Virus record (IMG/VR): IMGVR_UViG_3300045988_009456
Span: 1 to 5,972 of that record
Length of the DNA: 5,972 nucleotides
Reading direction: 5' to 3' (one strand)
From: a virus
Shown: positions 1-5,972 of the stretch, in pieces
Position numbering within the stretch: the first letter of the stretch is position 1
Layout: every line of letters begins with the position of its first letter
Notes under the pieces: model-generated
Database searches by the model: none
Told to the model about the DNA's origin: nothing
What the model saw: only the letters and a program-made list of their open reading frames with translations
Position numbers and translations under genes: made by a program

Positions 1-27
1 AATCAAAAAACAGACGAAGAAAAAAGG

Positions 28-54
28 GACACTCTAACAGTGTCACAGTGTCAC
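28..54 (+). repeat. Short inverted repeat GACACT(28-33)/AGTGTC(39-44) spanning the Rep stop codon, plus tandem direct repeat CAGTGTCA x2 (38-45, 46-53)
   Basis: Read directly. GACACT can pair with either AGTGTC copy (39-44 or 47-52). The element lies immediately 5' of the 13-bp stem-loop. Confidence 0.7.
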
Positions 55-55
55 C

Positions 56-89
56 TAGCCCAGTACCTATCAAGTAAGGTACTGGGCTA
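56..89 (+). repeat. Perfect 13-bp stem-loop (TAGCCCAGTACCT / AGGTACTGGGCTA) with 8-nt loop ATCAAGTA; candidate replication origin or end-of-operon terminator
   Basis: Left arm 56-68 is the exact reverse complement of right arm 77-89, and the loop is 69-76. It sits 19 nt after the Rep stop. No clean T-tract follows (TTGTCGTCT). Confidence 0.8.
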
Positions 90-148
90 TTGTCGTCTAA
101 AGACTCCATGTATCAATCTAATCAGTCTATCAAATAGCTATATCTTAT

Positions 149-191
149 CGCGCGTGCACGCGCGCGCGAAACGCGCACGCGCGCACGCGCG
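149..191 (+). repeat. GC-rich imperfect hairpin made of two 20-nt perfectly alternating pyrimidine-purine tracts around an AAA loop
   Basis: 149-168 CGCGCGTGCACGCGCGCGCG, loop 169-171 AAA, 172-191 CGCGCACGCGCGCACGCGCG. There are 21 stem positions, of which 19 pair; mismatches are 163/177 and 158/182. Composition is sharply unlike the A-rich remainder of the genome. Confidence 0.85.
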
Positions 192-276: not shown

Positions 277-442
277 GTTGAAAAGTACGAAAATTTAACG
301 ATAAAGCGTAAATAAAAGACAAAAAATACTGTTGAAAGTTTCGTTGAAAACTTGTTGAATTGTTGAAAGTTCATCAAAATGACGAAAAACATTGTGCAAC
401 TTTATGTTGAAAACCTGTTGAAAGTGTTGAAAGCGTTGAAAA
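277..442 (+). repeat. Iteron-like array: nine direct copies of GTTGAA(A) in one orientation
   Basis: Copies start at 277, 331, 343, 354 (GTTGAAT), 362, 406, 417, 426 and 435. They form two clusters of four (331-369 and 406-442) with 8-12 nt periodicity, plus an outlier at 277. A given hexamer is expected about once per 4 kb. Confidence 0.85.
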
Positions 443-597
443 CGCGCACAGCGCTAACAATGAATGAATTATCCGAGTTCCGCTTGCGCTACACACGGAA
501 GGGCGCTAAAGCGCCATTCAAAACAAAGGAGCAAAACCGGATTACAAAATTATTACAAAATGCAAAAAACATTGAAAGAACTCTTGACAAGTGGTAA
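379..597 (+). CDS. Hypothetical protein, 72 aa (doubtful; an alternative start ATG 460 gives 45 aa)
   Basis: Open frame from the ORF track. No convincing Shine-Dalgarno. Its first 20 codons are simply the second GTTGAAA repeat cluster read in frame (VENLLKVLKALK). It competes with the overlapping frame 464-649. Confidence 0.3.
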   Translation: MTKNIVQLYVENLLKVLKALKTRTALTMNELSEFRLRYTRKGAKAPFKTKEQNRITKLLQNAKNIERTLDKW

Positions 598-632
598 AAT
601 TAAATCAGAAAAAGAAAAGGAGGCAAAACACC

Positions 633-785
633 ATGAAAGGCTACGATGAATCTACAGGACTATTTAAATCCCGATACTACGCAAAAAAATACGCAAAAGG
701 CGATGAGGTAGCCGTAAAAGTTGAGGGTGGATACACAATAATGACCGCCGATTATTATTACAAAATCTGGAAAACACAAAAATGA
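633..785 (+). CDS. Hypothetical small Tyr/Lys-rich protein, 50 aa (MKGYDESTGLFKSRYYAKKYAKGDEVAVKVEGGYTIMTADYYYKIWKTQK)
   Basis: Strong SD AAGGAGG at 618-624, 8 nt before ATG 633. The track's GTG 591 start has no SD. The stop overlaps the next start in ATGA (782-785). Confidence 0.65.
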   Translation: MKGYDESTGLFKSRYYAKKYAKGDEVAVKVEGGYTIMTADYYYKIWKTQK

Positions 786-1189
786 AAGGATTGACAAAAA
801 TGCTTAGAAGCTATATCATGAACACAGATGGAAATGTACAGCTTGGAAGACATTTCAAGGTAAAAGAATTTGCTTGCAAAGATGGTAGTCCAATAGTATT
901 TATAGACGACTACTTATACACCGTCCTGGATATCCTGCGACATAAAATTGAAAAGCCAGTCGTAATCACCAGCGGATACCGTACACCAGAATGGAACGAA
1001 AAATGCGGGGGAGCAAAATACAGCTACCACATGCGCGGTATGGCAGCAGACATCCGGGCGAACGGAATGAGCGCAAAAGAACTTGCCAACAAACTGAATG
1101 CAATCATCCCGGATGAATGCGGCATTATCGTATACAACAGCTGGGTACATTTCGATGTACGGACCAGCAAATACAGAAAGGGGGTGTAA
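782..1189 (+). CDS. Zinc metallopeptidase, peptidase M15 family (M15_3 / YcbK-MepK-like cell-wall peptidase); putative lysin
   Basis: Motif string FKVKEFACKDG...VVITSGYRTPEWNEKCGGAKYSYHMRGMAADI...WVHFDVR matches the M15 pattern SGYR-x3-N-x3-GG-x3-S-x-H-x2-G-x-A-x-D ... VH-x-D. Predicted Zn ligands are H83, D90 and H123, with H-x6-D spacing. The start is uncertain: ATG 782, 800 and 818 are all in frame. Confidence 0.88.
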   Translation: MKGLTKMLRSYIMNTDGNVQLGRHFKVKEFACKDGSPIVFIDDYLYTVLDILRHKIEKPVVITSGYRTPEWNEKCGGAKYSYHMRGMAADIRANGMSAKELANKLNAIIPDECGIIVYNSWVHFDVRTSKYRKGV

Positions 1190-1191
1190 AA

Positions 1192-1308
1192 ATGGCGTTG
1201 ATTTCCATTAAGGAGGTCAAACAGGCAATCAAAATCATGATGCAGATCCTGGAAAAGCTCGACGAAATTTACCACGCACTGCACGACAGCGTCGAAGAAA
1301 AGGAGTAA
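1192..1308 (+). CDS. Hypothetical small helical/acidic protein, 38 aa (MALISIKEVKQAIKIMMQILEKLDEIYHALHDSVEEKE)
   Basis: ATG lies 2 nt after the peptidase stop, with an AAGGGGG run 6-7 nt upstream. It exactly fills the gap to the next gene and carries that gene's SD in its last codons. It is short, so support is moderate only. Confidence 0.45.
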   Translation: MALISIKEVKQAIKIMMQILEKLDEIYHALHDSVEEKE

Positions 1309-1312
1309 AACA

Positions 1313-1540
1313 ATGACGTACAAAACATGGAATGTAAGGGACCAGCCCAAAGAAACGCTAGAAAGACAGCTCGAAAAAAAATACAAAGAAATTAACAGCA
1401 ATTACAGAATGCTTAGAAGAGTGTCGAACATCGATGATGCAAAAATGCTGATAGATGAAATTTGGCAGATGAAAAGCTTCGCGAACACGATTGAGATGGA
1501 ATTAATGAGAAGGGAGTGTAACGATGGCACGACATCGTAA
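1313..1540 (+). CDS. Hypothetical protein, 75 aa
   Basis: SD AGGAG at 1301-1305, 7 nt before ATG 1313. The frame is open in an A-rich sequence. No motif recognised. Confidence 0.65.
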   Translation: MTYKTWNVRDQPKETLERQLEKKYKEINSNYRMLRRVSNIDDAKMLIDEIWQMKSFANTIEMELMRRECNDGTTS

Positions 1541-1646
1541 GAAAATGAACGGCGCAAAAGACCGCCGCATGTTCAACGCAACAGCACGAAAGACCAAAAC
1601 CATCAACCTAAGTCAAAAGCCCATGCGCGGCGGCATCCGGCTGTAA
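1524..1646 (+). CDS. Small highly basic DNA-binding/packaging protein, 40 aa (phiX J-like; gokushovirus ORF8/VP8-like)
   Basis: Translated by hand as MARHRKKMNGAKDRRMFNATARKTKTINLSQKPMRGGIRL. It is Arg/Lys-rich, with a C-terminal MRGGIRL of the kind I recall from gokushovirus ORF8 proteins. SD GGGAG at 1512-1516. It overlaps the previous ORF by 17 nt in another frame and is below the ORF track's length cut-off. Confidence 0.75.
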   Translation: MARHRKKMNGAKDRRMFNATARKTKTINLSQKPMRGGIRL

Positions 1647-1662: not shown

Positions 1663-1902
1663 ATGGAACATCTGTATTTCGGAATTTGGGACAACGTAGC
1701 AAAGTGCTACGCATGGGTAGGCGAAAACAAGAACAACGCAACCTTTGCACGAATGTGCAACGTAATGGCAAAGGACGAAAAGACATTCATTGGGCAGGCA
1801 CCGGAAGACTATCTCGGCTACAAACTGGCAACGTTCAATGACGAAAGCGGCGTTTTCACCAACGACAAGGAGAAAGTGTGGGAGGGCAAAGCGGGTGAAT
1901 AA
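1663..1902 (+). CDS. Small conserved non-structural protein, 79 aa, VP5/ORF5-like (recollection-based)
   Basis: The pattern F-x-I/V-x-D-x-V/K-A-x-x-Y ... A-x-R ... PEDY-x-L-x-x-L/G-x-F-D/N-x-x-x-G-x-F resembles the small gokushovirus protein usually encoded next to VP3/VP4. AAAGGA lies 7 nt upstream of the ATG. Confidence 0.6.
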   Translation: MEHLYFGIWDNVAKCYAWVGENKNNATFARMCNVMAKDEKTFIGQAPEDYLGYKLATFNDESGVFTNDKEKVWEGKAGE

Positions 1903-1910
1903 ACGATACG

Positions 1911-1936
1911 AAGAAGGGCGAGAGCCCTTCTTTTCT
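1911..1936 (+). terminator. Intrinsic-terminator-like hairpin (stem AAGAAGGGC/GCCCTTCTT, GAGA tetraloop, T-rich tail)
   Basis: Arms 1911-1919 and 1924-1932 pair perfectly and the loop is 1920-1923. TTTTCT is at 1931-1936. It lies in the 49-nt gap between the VP5-like ORF and the scaffold gene. Confidence 0.5.
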
Positions 1937-1951
1937 GAACCGGGCGAAAAA

Positions 1952-2293
1952 ATGCGGAAGCAATACGTCTGGACAAGAAACGAAAAAGGGCAAGAAGTGC
2001 TACAAGAAACAGCGCCAATCGACATTCAGCAGGAAATCGAAAGCTATGCAGACGAATGCGACATTAAAAACATCGTTCGAAAAGCAAGCTTTGACCCGGA
2101 ATTTCTCAAAAGTCTATCCGAAGGCGCAATGACAGGGGCAGAAGTGGATGTGACGGAATGGCCGCAAAACATCCACGAATATCACCGAATGGTTGCAACC
2201 GCACAGGCAAACGCCATGAAAATCGAAGAACTGCAAAAAATGACAGCGGAAGAAGCAAAAGCAGAACCTAAAACAAAGGAGGGAGAAAAGTGA
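1952..2293 (+). CDS. VP3: Internal scaffolding protein, VP3-like, 113 aa
   Basis: It sits immediately upstream of VP1 and is coupled to it (GTGA overlap at 2290-2293). It has an ECDIKNIVRK motif like the ECDINxI motif I recall in gokushovirus VP3, and an acidic/Lys-rich C-terminus. The first ATG in frame is after the hairpin. The TTG 1790 start in the track overlaps the previous gene and has no SD. Confidence 0.6.
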   Translation: MRKQYVWTRNEKGQEVLQETAPIDIQQEIESYADECDIKNIVRKASFDPEFLKSLSEGAMTGAEVDVTEWPQNIHEYHRMVATAQANAMKIEELQKMTAEEAKAEPKTKEGEK

Positions 2294-3981
2294 ATCGAAA
2301 CAATGAACGACACTTTAACCAGGTTCCGAAAATGGAAGCAAGCCGAACCCGATTCAGGCGTGACCAGACGATTTTAACGACATTTGATTCCGGCAAACTG
2401 ATTCCGTTTTACGTTGACGAGGTGTTACCGGGAGACACATTCAGCGTGGATACATCGGCGATTATCCGAATGACCACACCAAAATACCCAGTGATGGACG
2501 ATGCATTCATTGATTTCTACTACTTCTACTGTCCTAATAGAATTCTGTGGGACAACTTCAAATACTTCATGGGCGAAGTCGAGGAGGCCCCGTGGATGCC
2601 AACAAAAACATACAAAGTACCAAAAATAAAAATCAACGAAGGAGGAACCGTAGCACCAAAAACGATCCCAAAAGAAAAATCAATCCTAGACTACATGGGA
2701 GTACCAACAAAAACAGAAAAAGGATTTAACATAAACGCCTTACCAATCAGAGCGTATGTGAAAATTTGGAACGAATTCTTCCGAGACGAAAACGTGGAAA
2801 ATGCCGCCACAATCAAAACAGACGATGAAGATGTGGCATACTTAGACAACTACGAAGACGATAATATAGAAGAAACTATTAAATACGCATACAGAGGCGG
2901 CAGATGCTTACCGGTAAACAAGTTCCACGACTACTTTACCAGCTGTCTGCCTTATCCTCAGCGCGGGCCGGAAGTAACGCTGCCAATGACAGGCAATGCA
3001 CCAATCAGATTAGGGAATGGAAACGGAGAATACCAAGAGAGCAACGGGCCAATAGAAATGGTAATAGGTGTATTAAACAAAAATACACCGGGATCTCTAA
3101 GCTATACAAACGCAACGGGAGCACCCGGAGAAAAAAAAGCGATGCAATTCACCGGAACAGAAAGAACGTCCAGCGAAACAGGAGGCGGCGGGTGGATGTA
3201 TGCAGACCTTGCATCAGTCACGGCAGCAACCGTCAACGATTTACGCAAAGCCGTAGCAGTACAGCAGTACTACGAGGCGATGGCACGAGGCGGCAGTCGA
3301 TACCGCGAACAGGTAAAGGCACTATGGAATGTGGTCATCTCAGACAAAACTGTACAAGTGCCAGAGTATCTAGGCGGCGGCAGATATCATGTCAACATTA
3401 ACCAAATCGTGCAGACCAGCGGACAGCAGGCAAACAACGATACGCCCATCGGCGAAACTGGCGCAATGTCAGTAACGCCAATCAACGAAAGTAGTTTCAC
3501 AAAATCCTTTGAAGAGCACGGATTTATCATTGGGGTATGCTGCGTAAGGCACAACCGAACTTATCAACAGGGTCTCGAAAGGTTCTGGAGCCGGGAAGAT
3601 AGACTCGACTATTACGTGCCACAATTCGCCAATTTGGGAGAGCAGCCGGTAAAGAAAAAAGAAATCATGTTGACCGGTAATGAAACTGACGAAGAAACAT
3701 TTGGCTATCAAGAAGCATGGGCAGACTACAGAATGAAGCCCAATCGTGTATCCGGCCTTATGAGAAGCAACGCAACAGGAACGCTAGACTTCTGGCACTA
3801 TGCAGACAACTATTCAGATGTGCCCACACTCTCGCAAGAGTGGATGACAGAAGGAAAAACCGAAATCGCAAGAACGCTTATCGTACAAAACGAGCCTCAA
3901 TTCTTCGGAGCAATCCGTGTAGCAAACAAGACCACAAGACGGATGCCGTTGTACAGCGTACCGGGCTTGTACAAAATGTAA
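2290..3981 (+). CDS. VP1: Major capsid protein VP1 (Microviridae F-protein family), 563 aa
   Basis: Motifs include SRTRFRRDQ..TTFDSGKLIPFYVDEVLPGDTF, FYCPNRILWDNF, TVNDLRKAVAVQQYYEAMARGGSRYREQVKALWNV and VPEYLGGG. GTG start with SD AAGGAGGG at 2276-2283. Confidence 0.95.
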   Translation: MNRNNERHFNQVPKMEASRTRFRRDQTILTTFDSGKLIPFYVDEVLPGDTFSVDTSAIIRMTTPKYPVMDDAFIDFYYFYCPNRILWDNFKYFMGEVEEAPWMPTKTYKVPKIKINEGGTVAPKTIPKEKSILDYMGVPTKTEKGFNINALPIRAYVKIWNEFFRDENVENAATIKTDDEDVAYLDNYEDDNIEETIKYAYRGGRCLPVNKFHDYFTSCLPYPQRGPEVTLPMTGNAPIRLGNGNGEYQESNGPIEMVIGVLNKNTPGSLSYTNATGAPGEKKAMQFTGTERTSSETGGGGWMYADLASVTAATVNDLRKAVAVQQYYEAMARGGSRYREQVKALWNVVISDKTVQVPEYLGGGRYHVNINQIVQTSGQQANNDTPIGETGAMSVTPINESSFTKSFEEHGFIIGVCCVRHNRTYQQGLERFWSREDRLDYYVPQFANLGEQPVKKKEIMLTGNETDEETFGYQEAWADYRMKPNRVSGLMRSNATGTLDFWHYADNYSDVPTLSQEWMTEGKTEIARTLIVQNEPQFFGAIRVANKTTRRMPLYSVPGLYKM

Positions 3982-3991
3982 AAAAGGAGGA

Positions 3992-4017
3992 AGCCCGGAG
4001 AAATCCGGGCTATTTTT
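3992..4017 (+). terminator. Intrinsic-terminator-like hairpin after VP1 (stem AGCCCGGA/TCCGGGCT, GAAA tetraloop, ATTTTT tail)
   Basis: Positions 3992-3999 pair with 4004-4011 (8 bp, 6 of them GC). The loop is 4000-4003 and T5 is at 4013-4017. It lies 11 nt after the VP1 stop and directly before the VP2 ATG. Confidence 0.6.
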
Positions 4018-4019
4018 AA

Positions 4020-4874
4020 ATGGCAGGATTATTAAGCTTTTTAAGAGCACTCAACATAGCGGGAAACGTAGCAAATACAATCGGAACATTTGCCGGAGCA
4101 GCAAAAAACATAGCAGGAGCATTCGGCGGATGGGGCCAAACAGGCAACAGCCAAAGCAGCGGCGGCAGCATACAGCAAGGTGGCGGGCACTCAGCAAGTG
4201 GGAGCCAGTCAGGTACCAACATACAGCAAGTTGACGAATGGCTAAAACAGGCATACGCATACCAAGGGCAAGAAGCGGCCATGCAGGGCAAATACAACAG
4301 TCAAAGCATGCTTAAACAGATGGGATATAACACCTTACAAGCAATCATGCAAGGCGTATATAATCACATCGAAAATGGCGTAGCCATGAACTACAACAGT
4401 GCCGAAGCACTAGCAAATCGAGAATGGCAAGAACACATGTCAAGCACTGCATACCAACGAGCCGTGGAGGACATGAAAAAAGCCGGACTGAATCCAATCC
4501 TAGCATATGCAAATGGAGGAGCGAGCACACCGGGGGGGAGTGCAGGAACAATCAGCGGAGCAAGTATGGGCTTAGCAAGCAGCAGTGCGCTAGGAGTAAG
4601 CCGGAGCGGAGGTTTTGTCCCAAACGCATACGAAAGCTCGAGCTGGTCACAAAGTGACTGGTACAACGCCGCGCAAAGCTGGCAACAAATGCTCAGCACA
4701 ACACACATGACACCTTACGGACTACAAAAAGCCTTAACAGACGTGGCAGACAACACAAGCAAAGCAATCGATAAGGCAACAGTAAAACAGCCAAACAAGA
4801 AAAATTATATCGCACCACAAGACAAAACAGGAGAATACGGAGAAAGACGAAAGCCGGGTGACTACTTAAAATGA
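4020..4874 (+). CDS. VP2: Minor capsid / DNA pilot protein VP2 (phiX H-like), 284 aa
   Basis: It has a hydrophobic Gly/Ala-rich N-terminus, a G/S/Q low-complexity tract, and the motif NREWQEHMSSTAYQRAVEDMKKAGLNPILAY typical of gokushovirus VP2. It lies between VP1 and Rep. Confidence 0.9.
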   Translation: MAGLLSFLRALNIAGNVANTIGTFAGAAKNIAGAFGGWGQTGNSQSSGGSIQQGGGHSASGSQSGTNIQQVDEWLKQAYAYQGQEAAMQGKYNSQSMLKQMGYNTLQAIMQGVYNHIENGVAMNYNSAEALANREWQEHMSSTAYQRAVEDMKKAGLNPILAYANGGASTPGGSAGTISGASMGLASSSALGVSRSGGFVPNAYESSSWSQSDWYNAAQSWQQMLSTTHMTPYGLQKALTDVADNTSKAIDKATVKQPNKKNYIAPQDKTGEYGERRKPGDYLK

Positions 4875-5890
4875 GTTGCTACAAGCCATTGATAAGGCTG
4901 TACAACCCTGAAAACAAAGACATAAGCGGGCGGGTGTACTCACTCGCCCGCTTTTCTGAAATATCGGGAAAGCAGCTAAAGTATGAAGATTTGATGTATC
5001 AAAAAAACATCATGTTGATACCATGCGGACAATGTATCGGATGCAGAATAAGGCAAAGAGAAGATTGGACAACACGGATAGAGCTGGAAGCGCGAGATTA
5101 CCCGAAAGAACAAGTGTGGTTTATAACATTAACCTATGATGACGAACACGTACCGGGAATGATCGTAAACACAGGCGAAATCATGCGAAAAGTACAATAC
5201 GTCTGGAAGCCGGGCGAGAAGCGCCCTGAGAGCGTCCAAACATTACTATATCCTGACATTCAAAAATTCTTAAAACGGCTCAGAAAGGCTTATAGGGGCA
5301 AATTACGCTATTTTGTAGCCGGAGAATACGGAGAACAAACCGCAAGACCACACTACCACATGATATTGTATGGATGGCAACCGAAAGACCTGGAACACCT
5401 ATACAAAATACAACACAATGGATATTACACAAGCAAATGGCTAGCAGACCTATGGGGCATGGGTCAAATACAGATAGCACAAGCAGTACCGGAAACATAT
5501 AGATATGTTGCGGGATACGTAACAAAAAAAATGTACGAGATAGACGGAGTAAAAGCAAACGCATACTATGAGCTAGGACAAACAAGACCTTTCGCATGTA
5601 TGAGCCTTAAACCGGGTTTAGGAGACAACTATTACGAAAAACACAAAGCAGAAATCTGGAGACAAGGCTATATACAGTGCACAAACGGCAAACACGCACA
5701 GATACCACGATACTATGAAAAGAAGATGGAAGTTGAAAACCCACAAAGATTGTGGAGAATTAAACAAAACAGACAAGCAGCGGCGATCGCAGAAAACCGA
5801 CTAAAGTACGAAAACGCAGACTTTGCAGAACAGTGCAAGACGAAAGAAAGAGTAATCAAAAAACAGACGAAGAAAAAAGGGACACTCTAA
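4871..5890 (+). CDS. VP4: Rolling-circle replication initiator VP4 (HUH endonuclease, phiX A-like), 339 aa
   Basis: Motif 1 is FITLTYDD. The HUH motif is RPHYHMILYG (H161/H163). The double-tyrosine catalytic motif YVAGYVTKK (Y212/Y216) parallels phiX174 A YVAKYVNKK. There is a Cys cluster at CGQCIGC. The start overlaps the VP2 stop in ATGA, and the last 37 nt lie in the terminal repeat. Confidence 0.95.
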   Translation: MSCYKPLIRLYNPENKDISGRVYSLARFSEISGKQLKYEDLMYQKNIMLIPCGQCIGCRIRQREDWTTRIELEARDYPKEQVWFITLTYDDEHVPGMIVNTGEIMRKVQYVWKPGEKRPESVQTLLYPDIQKFLKRLRKAYRGKLRYFVAGEYGEQTARPHYHMILYGWQPKDLEHLYKIQHNGYYTSKWLADLWGMGQIQIAQAVPETYRYVAGYVTKKMYEIDGVKANAYYELGQTRPFACMSLKPGLGDNYYEKHKAEIWRQGYIQCTNGKHAQIPRYYEKKMEVENPQRLWRIKQNRQAAAIAENRLKYENADFAEQCKTKERVIKKQTKKKGTL

Positions 5891-5972
5891 CAGTGTCACA
5901 GTGTCACCTAGCCCAGTACCTATCAAGTAAGGTACTGGGCTATTGTCGTCTAAAGACTCCATGTATCAATCT
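5854..5972. repeat. Terminal direct repeat, copy 2 (identical to 1-119)
   Basis: Same as copy 1. The window ends in the middle of unique sequence that continues at position 120. Confidence 0.95.

Follow-up and report, generated by a model that had tools for sequence, protein, structure and literature searches.

Peptidases of the M15_3 family have been known in small single-stranded DNA phages since 2012, when Roux et al. described them in five gokushoviruses and six alpaviruses from humans, showed repeated horizontal transfer of the gene, noted unknown ORFs adjacent to it and proposed that it plays the role of an endolysin (PMC3394797). Later work lists the family, PF08291, as an endolysin of 'some ssDNA viruses', and M15 genes are also carried by cultured microviruses, such as phiHBP1 and roseophages. 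Two phage enzymes that act on peptidoglycan have been studied at the bench. The endolysin of Burkholderia phage ST79, 'peptidase M15A' (PF08291), is active on peptidoglycan in vitro in zymogram and turbidity assays (PMC5025407). Gp7 of Ebor, a Tainavirinae microvirus of Rhodobacter, is an experimentally active peptidoglycan hydrolase, is present in trace amounts in purified virions and has been proposed to be a non-universal accessory cargo (PMC11980548).

The subject of this work is a stretch of viral DNA of 5,972 nt, referred to below as the window, in which a preliminary description had singled out a cell-wall peptidase gene and implied that its presence in a microvirus was new. That novelty falls away: relatives of the gene carry the label 'peptidase M15' in GenBank (KX513868, KX513876 and KX513877; in KT264791 the gene is unannotated) and were reported by Roux et al. 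(PMC3394797). Published accounts of the gene, of its horizontal origin and of a possible endolysin role go back to 2012, and its annotation is routine; the window supplies another example. What the window allows is a closer look at where the enzyme comes from, what accompanies it and how it might reach the cell wall.

An M15 peptidase in a gokushovirus genome

The first 119 nt of the window are an exact copy of its last 119 nt, and the window is thus a complete, circularly closed gokushovirus genome of 5853 nt. All recognisable genes lie on the + strand and, in Pfam and PHROG searches, make up the gokushovirus set (Table 1): VP1 (Phage_F), VP2, VP3 (Chlamy_scaf), VP4 Rep, VP5 (Phage_ORF5) and a J/VP8-like protein. 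This is the gene complement, on one strand of a 4.5–6 kb circle, by which we recognise Gokushovirinae. In GenBank, the genome comes closest to Gokushovirus WZ-2015a (KT264791) and Human gut gokushovirus (KX513868), with 83% nucleotide identity over 90–95% of its length. The peptidase gene occupies the interval between Rep and the J-like gene, where it had been placed before. A search of the window against Rfam gave no match. Promoter-like sites, one of which precedes the peptidase block, are no more numerous in this region than expected from shuffled sequence.

Table 1. Features of the window discussed in the text (positions in nt from the first letter of the window).
Feature	Position	Strand	Basis
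Promoter-like site TTGAAA-17-TAAAAT with TG, upstream of the peptidase block	572..600	+	Consensus match only
50-aa ORFan, ATGA overlap with ATG 782	633..785	+	tblastn
Shine-Dalgarno AAAGGA for ATG 800	786..791	+	AGGAG/GAGG/AAGGA motif 8–12 nt before the conserved ATG in relatives
Peptidase_M15_3 coding sequence	800..1189 (129 aa, conserved start); longest ORF from 782 (135 aa)	+	Pfam, PHROG, start conservation, pN/pS
H-x6-D zinc-binding motif SYHMRGMAAD (H83, D90)	1028..1051	+	Aligns to H154 and D161 of 1lbu; invariant in both alignments
HFD motif: H123 (predicted third zinc ligand) and D125	1148..1156	+	C-terminal end of the Pfam profile
ORF-B, 38-aa amphipathic-helix protein directly 3' of the peptidase	1192..1308	+	Conservation, pN/pS
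J/VP8-like DNA-binding protein	1524-1646	+	phrog_10695
VP5	1663-1902	+	Phage_ORF5
VP3 scaffold	about 1790-2293	+	Chlamy_scaf
VP1	2290-3981	+	Phage_F, E = 1e-139
VP2 pilot	4020-4874	+	
VP4/Rep	4871-5890	+	

The 135-aa frame at 782–1189 (+), picked out earlier for its M15 signature, is indeed a member of this family. It matches Peptidase_M15_3 (PF08291) with E = 6.6e-22 and 78.1 bits against a cut-off of 23.2, over positions 2–108 of the 108 of the profile, a score that as a sequence match is far beyond chance. It also matches PHROG 894 'endolysin' (E = 1.4e-41) and, marginally, Peptidase_M15_2 (28.9 against a cut-off of 27). With 40.8 bits against a cut-off of 185 for the equivalog NF053624 of NCBIfam, it is a relative but not a member of the MepK L,D-endopeptidases. 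The active-site residues had been numbered correctly: H83, D90 and H123 are encoded by CAC (1028-1030), GAC (1049-1051) and CAT (1148-1150), respectively. All three are unchanged in each of 30 close relatives; across the homologues from Clostridia, H83 and D90 are invariant and H123 nearly so. An H-x6-D motif with a distal His, the zinc triad of LAS/M15 enzymes, is thus in place.

A deeper profile that includes the Clostridia homologues finds the zinc D-Ala-D-Ala carboxypeptidase of Streptomyces albus (1lbu) with E = 3.3e-11. No other solved structure is significantly similar in sequence, and H83 and D90 come to lie opposite H154 and D161 of 1lbu. The same profile gives weak matches to VanY and to the Hedgehog N-domain, both LAS-fold zinc proteins. 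In the latter, the HVH motif has its second His opposite H123, whose equivalence to a third zinc ligand is drawn only from this weak LAS-fold alignment (E = 0.43). An AF2 model of the peptidase, built from a shallow alignment, is of moderate quality (pLDDT 69, pTM 0.67) and too weak to read the geometry of the site. Its best match in the PDB is again 1lbu (E = 6.5e-3, prob 1.0, TM 0.41), followed by VanY, LysECD7, ChiX and the RB49 endolysin; these matches are weak, yet all of them are LAS/M15 enzymes. Among the predicted viral structures of BFVD the model has 34 matches with E of at most 0.001, the best with E = 6e-11 and TM 0.6; nearly all that bear names are M15/M15A phage peptidases, with several annotated microvirus proteins among them.

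The family of the enzyme and its catalytic residues are therefore clear, and with a pN/pS of 0.19 against 82 relatives the gene is under purifying selection. Profile, motif and model comparisons support the view that the product is a single-domain M15-type (LAS-fold) zinc peptidase of peptidoglycan, and we infer that it is muralytic. The protein is small and basic, with 19 Lys and Arg to 14 Asp and Glu residues, and a C-terminal stretch beyond the Pfam domain, Y131-R132-K133, is invariant among close relatives.

Start site, neighbouring frames and the absence of a holin

The start codon of the longest ORF is not the conserved one. The relatives conserve a Met at the position of M7 (ATG at nt 800; 64 of the 82) or one codon upstream; the residues ahead of M7 are not conserved, and most database relatives are 129–130 aa long. 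The conserved ATG is served by the Shine-Dalgarno sequence listed in Table 1, and none was found for M1 (ATG 782). The preliminary description had regarded the peptidase as translationally coupled to the 50-aa ORF upstream. The ATGA overlap does exist, but the coupling is not conserved. Only two of the 82 related genomes contain this ORFan, which has no match in Pfam or PHROG, and the arrangement is for that reason a private accident of the present genome. The ORFan was rejected as a coupled partner also on the ground that the conserved peptidase start lies downstream of the overlap. Farther upstream, a 72-aa frame at 379-597, which some database entries (P0061, for example) show fused to the peptidase, was rejected as a gene: its pN/pS is 1.04 at low divergence, and it coincides with an array of GTTGAAA repeats. 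By these measures the region is conserved non-coding DNA.

On the downstream side, ORF-B is a real coding gene, found in all 82 relatives with about 80% identity and a pN/pS of 0.22 at saturated synonymous sites. It is also present, with 67–81% identity and beside the J-like gene, in seven genomes that lack the peptidase. Judged by this distribution, ORF-B is a core small gene of the gut gokushovirus group and not a peptidase-specific one. The predicted helix has a hydrophobic moment of up to 0.64 and the protein a net charge of -3. As a holin or chaperone dedicated to the peptidase it was rejected, being kept in the seven peptidase-less genomes and forming an acidic amphipathic helix rather than a transmembrane one. 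A hydrophobic antisense frame of 125 aa (1024-1401) was likewise set aside: just 27 of the 82 relatives keep at least 70% of it open, and hydrophobic antisense frames are to be expected opposite an A-rich strand.

The peptidase is encoded without a holin. On the Kyte-Doolittle scale with a 19-residue window, where the usual threshold for a transmembrane segment is 1.6, the highest value of any + strand frame is 1.02, at the N-terminus of VP2, in agreement with the earlier statement that the genome has no transmembrane-like frame on this strand. There is accordingly no holin-like frame on the + strand of the window with which a canonical holin–endolysin cassette could be formed. The N-terminus of the longest ORF, MLRSYIMNTDGNVQLGRHF, had been described as neither a signal nor a SAR sequence, and this stands: it is hydrophilic, and no segment of the peptidase exceeds 0.84 on the same scale. 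The conserved N-terminus, MLRSYI..., is also free of a secretion signal. Small transmembrane ORFs within 200 nt of the peptidase and on the same strand were found in none of the 82 microvirus genomes, as opposed to 20 of 45 assessable bacterial loci (Fisher p = 3e-11).

Nor did the search of the clade reveal a conserved transmembrane ORF. An embedded gene like E of phiX174 was considered and rejected: hydrophobic segments in alternate frames occur in 19 of 90 genomes, but they fall mainly within VP1, have no ATG and show no conservation. The peptidase-less relatives were searched for a membrane ORF that is mutually exclusive with the peptidase, and none was found; they yielded just a 22-aa frame in conserved intergenic DNA and one 24-aa transmembrane mini-ORF in KT264799. 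Two other peptidase-bearing microviruses, Dulem viruses 195 and 178, encode a 35-aa transmembrane ORF directly after VP2. The window has no room for such a gene, since its VP2 overlaps Rep directly.

Distribution, origin and probable host

Every complete genome in the VP1 clade of the window (at least 66% identity) carries a peptidase. Two close VP1 relatives, MG945781 and KT264792, have at the same locus an allele that is 46–49% identical, which indicates cassette-like replacement. Seven gokushoviruses with about 45% VP1/VP4 identity to the window are without the peptidase and have kept the core genes that flank it. This makes the peptidase an accessory gene, inserted into a backbone that is conserved, and the existence of related gokushoviruses without it means that it is not the basic lysis route of the lineage. 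It may not be needed for lysis at all, since these relatives evidently complete their cycle. Relatives of the peptidase as such are numerous: clustered at 90% identity, they make up more than 1300 groups, for the most part from contigs of 5–6 kb.

To place the gene among its bacterial and phage homologues, we used a scan that took one genome per bacterial species and was seeded with two exact motifs, so that its taxon sample is biased. It returned 52 non-microvirus loci, with no microviruses among them, that were 38–48% identical to the window protein, save for two outliers at 29–35%. About 46 of the 52 belong to Bacillota/Clostridia (Lachnospiraceae, Lacrimispora, Hungatella, Oscillospiraceae and Faecalibacterium). 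By bit score the preference for Clostridia homologues is modest: 98–116 for the scanned loci, compared with 105 for Faecalibacterium phages and 92–96 for Vibrio phages and SP6. The homologues in Clostridia prophages sit in cassettes of tail, membrane-protein, endolysin and integrase genes; in one of them (L095) the order is tail fibre, membrane proteins, M15 endolysin and integrases. Several bacterial copies have C-terminal wall-binding extensions, whereas the microvirus copy ends just past the catalytic domain. These homologues place the origin of the gene among prophage endolysins. Small membrane ORFs lie beside 20 of the 45 assessable bacterial copies and beside none of the 82 microvirus copies; it therefore appears that the enzyme was taken from a holin–endolysin cassette and the holin left behind.

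The same homologues bear on the host. Gokushovirus peptidases were linked to Faecalibacterium by Roux et al., who also described their affinity to Firmicutes homologues (PMC3394797), and gut gokushoviruses have been predicted by Shah et al. to infect Clostridiales (PMC10159846). In the window, strong Shine-Dalgarno sites precede most of the genes, which would fit a Clostridia-type host rather than one from Bacteroidota. The host is probably a member of Clostridia, and the distribution of the homologues is a separate line of evidence in favour of the published prediction, in which these Gram-positive bacteria are the hosts of gut gokushoviruses.

Proposed role and comparison with known systems

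The explanation that we favour, and consider reasonably probable as a whole, is that of a captured exit endolysin without a holin, gated by a separate and non-canonical breach of the membrane. An ancestor of this gut gokushovirus clade would have acquired the enzyme from a lysis cassette belonging to a Clostridia prophage or tailed phage, and the gene, equipped with a ribosome-binding site of its own, would have entered the genome immediately ahead of a small core gene. The enzyme would cut peptide stems or cross-links of peptidoglycan, most likely as an endolysin at exit. Having no export signal, it would build up harmlessly in the cytoplasm. With the enzyme gene captured alone, and not the holin, the breach would have to come from some other, non-canonical phage function, presumably the one that lets the peptidase-less relatives lyse their hosts; once the membrane is breached, the enzyme would reach the wall and destroy it. 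Action at exit and the need for a separate membrane lesion are what we infer from this arrangement.

In a narrower form of the proposal, the clade would run a holin-free minimal lysis module in ssDNA phages of Gram-positive Clostridia, its trimmed endolysin being let through the membrane by a protein with no transmembrane domain; we regard this as quite unlikely. The candidates for a gate are the ultra-conserved ORF-B and, working from within the cell, the glycine-rich N-terminus of VP2, the pilot protein. Should one of them prove to play that part, it would constitute a new way of gating an endolysin.

Several other readings were weighed against the captured endolysin. The enzyme could act at exit and reach the wall with no membrane-lesion factor of the phage, by a host route, by non-classical export or by means of its conserved basic C-terminal tail (KYRKGV). 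A host route or non-classical export has been described for LysA of mycobacteriophage Ms6 and Svl of pneumococcal phage SV1, and this reading would agree with a + strand free of holin-like, signal or SAR segments and with the invariance of Y131-R132-K133 outside the Pfam domain. It is nonetheless unlikely, though the strongest of these competitors: the conserved N-terminus has no secretion signal, no chaperone-like gene specific to the peptidase is present (the sole adjacent conserved gene also occurs in peptidase-less genomes), and unregulated export would lyse the cell prematurely, given that microviruses have little temporal gene control. A role at entry, in which a few packaged or capsid-associated copies open the thick Clostridial wall for a tail-less virion and its VP2 pilot tube, would suit the probable hosts, which are monoderm Clostridia with thick peptidoglycan, as well as the small size and basic charge of the protein, and has a parallel in the trace of Gp7 in Ebor virions (PMC11980548). 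However, the nearest homologues are prophage endolysins beside holin-like genes and not virion proteins, the product is a catalytic domain with no domain for attachment to capsid or VP2, the gene stands among non-structural small genes, and relatives with the same core genes exist without it; we therefore think an entry enzyme rather improbable.

The patchy distribution, with seven relatives without the gene and alleles swapped at the locus, together with the evident possibility of gokushovirus lysis in its absence, might suggest a dispensable passenger or a non-lytic role, be it remodelling of the wall, freeing of virions from debris or attack on neighbouring cells after lysis, with the basic gokushovirus mechanism doing the killing. 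We give this view little weight: the peptidase is retained by all complete genomes of the window's VP1 clade, it is under strong purifying selection, and 390 nt are a large cost in a genome of 5.85 kb. As to the possibility, raised earlier, that a bacterial or tailed-phage gene was misjoined to a microvirus contig during assembly, the foreign origin of the gene is the one thing in its favour. In 82 independent genomes, which come from numerous samples and countries, this gene is found at the same position; the two ends of the window join through the exact overlap of 119 nt; and the gene has a phage-typical Shine-Dalgarno sequence and compact spacing. An assembly chimera can in effect be dismissed.

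Gokushoviruses are among the most abundant phages of mammalian guts, and a captured endolysin without a holin provides a handle on what opens the membrane in these phages. The present analysis sharpens the question on two counts: a membrane step is missing, and the host is probably Gram-positive.

The single-gene lysis proteins of very small phages, such as E of phiX174, meet the same need, the lysis of the host, but are small membrane proteins that are embedded in other genes and block peptidoglycan synthesis, whereas the clade of the window has no conserved membrane ORF. 1lbu (M15A in MEROPS) shares the H-x6-D zinc motif and about 30% identity over the core with the window protein; it is a secreted bacterial enzyme with an additional N-terminal wall-binding domain, and the two may differ in bond specificity. 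Ebor is a microvirus of another subfamily and another host. It encodes a 45-aa membrane protein, Gp1, which has no counterpart in the window, and the HHpred template of its Gp7 is 6SSC, so that Gp7 may be a different class of enzyme. The endolysin of ST79, a single-domain protein of about 18 kDa (His-tagged), resembles the window protein in its Pfam family, yet belongs to a tailed dsDNA phage that also has a holin, LysB and LysC, unlike the window, which has no holin. The M15_3 endolysins of Clostridia prophages and of Faecalibacterium siphophages (FP_oengus, FP_Toutatis, Lelie and Aster) come nearer: they belong to the same Pfam family and to PHROG 894, share the motifs FxVKEFACKD, SGYRT, SYHxxGxAAD and VHxD, and are 38–48% identical. 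They are single-domain or modular and commonly stand beside holin-like ORFs, whereas the microvirus copy is trimmed to 129 aa and lacks a holin. The closest counterparts are the M15_3 peptidases of human-gut Gokushovirinae: the virus group, the gene and its place in the genome are all the same. With 66–84% protein identity to the window, they differ from it at the sequence level only, and to this shared arrangement the window adds its private upstream ORFan of 50 aa.

Conserved genes and probable replacement at the peptidase locus

The short gene immediately 3′ of the peptidase encodes a 38-aa protein that finds no match in Pfam, PHROG or NCBIfam; it is 67–81% identical across gokushoviruses whose capsid and Rep proteins are only ~45% identical. 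Its pN/pS is 0.22, a value obtained with synonymous sites saturated, and no other protein in this gut group is as well conserved. The 75-aa ORF that follows it is also a real gene. A weakly similar counterpart, carrying the motif EEAKxIxEEIYKxK, is found in peptidase-less relatives; there it is located upstream, not downstream, of the 38-aa gene, so the genes flanking the insertion site are arranged differently.

In MG945781 (1377–1763) and KT264792 (4215–4610), whose VP1 is close to that of the window (~75% identity), the peptidase is only 46–49% identical to the one described here, and it sits at the same locus, with the 38-aa gene directly 3′ of it. The presence of so divergent a peptidase at the same position in close VP1 relatives indicates replacement of an allele or cassette.

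Features of the window and of the compared genomes
Feature	Genome	Position	Strand	Description
Terminal direct repeat	Window	1–119 and 5854–5972		Exact, 119 nt
Two strong ssDNA hairpins	Window	56–89 and 149–191	+	Just past Rep stop
GTTGAAA array	Window	277–441	+	Iteron-like; 8 copies in 165 nt, long intergenic region
Promoter-like site	Window	791–819	+	TTGACA-17-TATCAT, near-consensus (11/12 match)
38-aa protein gene	Window	1192–1308	+	Amphipathic, heptad-like; unannotated
75-aa ORF	Window	1313–1540	+	pN/pS 0.28; in 56/82 relatives
24-aa mini-ORF	KT264799 (L088), peptidase-less	3972–4046		MVDVIQSIAIMLLSIAVIINAKRR; clear transmembrane segment, basic tail
35-aa single-pass membrane ORF	Dulem virus 195 (L142); Dulem virus 178 (L143)	2593–2700; 2621–2728		MSSDSLLLFFMVLIVLSCVPGLILLKAIVDWLKRH; coupled to VP2 end

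Non-coding elements and genome ends

The promoter-like site straddles the start of the peptidase, and most relatives keep its TTGAC, situated between the Shine–Dalgarno sequence and the ATG. The site could drive downstream genes as an internal promoter, or it could be no more than a conserved spacer. Further upstream, GTTGAAA occurs nine times in the window as a whole versus ~1 expected, a count reached by none of 200 shuffles. The 72-aa ‘ORF’ overlying the array (379–597) has a pN/pS near 1, so the conserved DNA there is non-coding and may be a promoter or origin region.

One of the two hairpins has a perfect 13-bp stem (dG −13.7, z −7.7), and the second consists of an alternating CG-rich palindrome (dG −26.5, z −3.1); both are candidate terminator or origin structures. 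The Rep stop codon lies within the terminal repeat, and the contig is a closed circle with a true genome length of 5,853 nt. Another peptidase-bearing contig, IMGVR_UViG_3300045988_007630, is 10.9 kb long, about twice the microvirus size, and includes a ~3.5-kb stretch in which hydrophobic frames crowd the + strand; a chimera, a concatemer or an inverted region may underlie this.

Small membrane ORFs in other microviruses

The 24-aa mini-ORF is located upstream of an ORF-C-like gene and was found in KT264799 only. Dulem viruses 195 and 178 are peptidase-bearing microviruses of a lineage other than that of the window, and their 35-aa membrane ORF is a candidate holin-like partner. Whereas these two viruses carry such an ORF at the VP2 end, the clade of the window lacks it.
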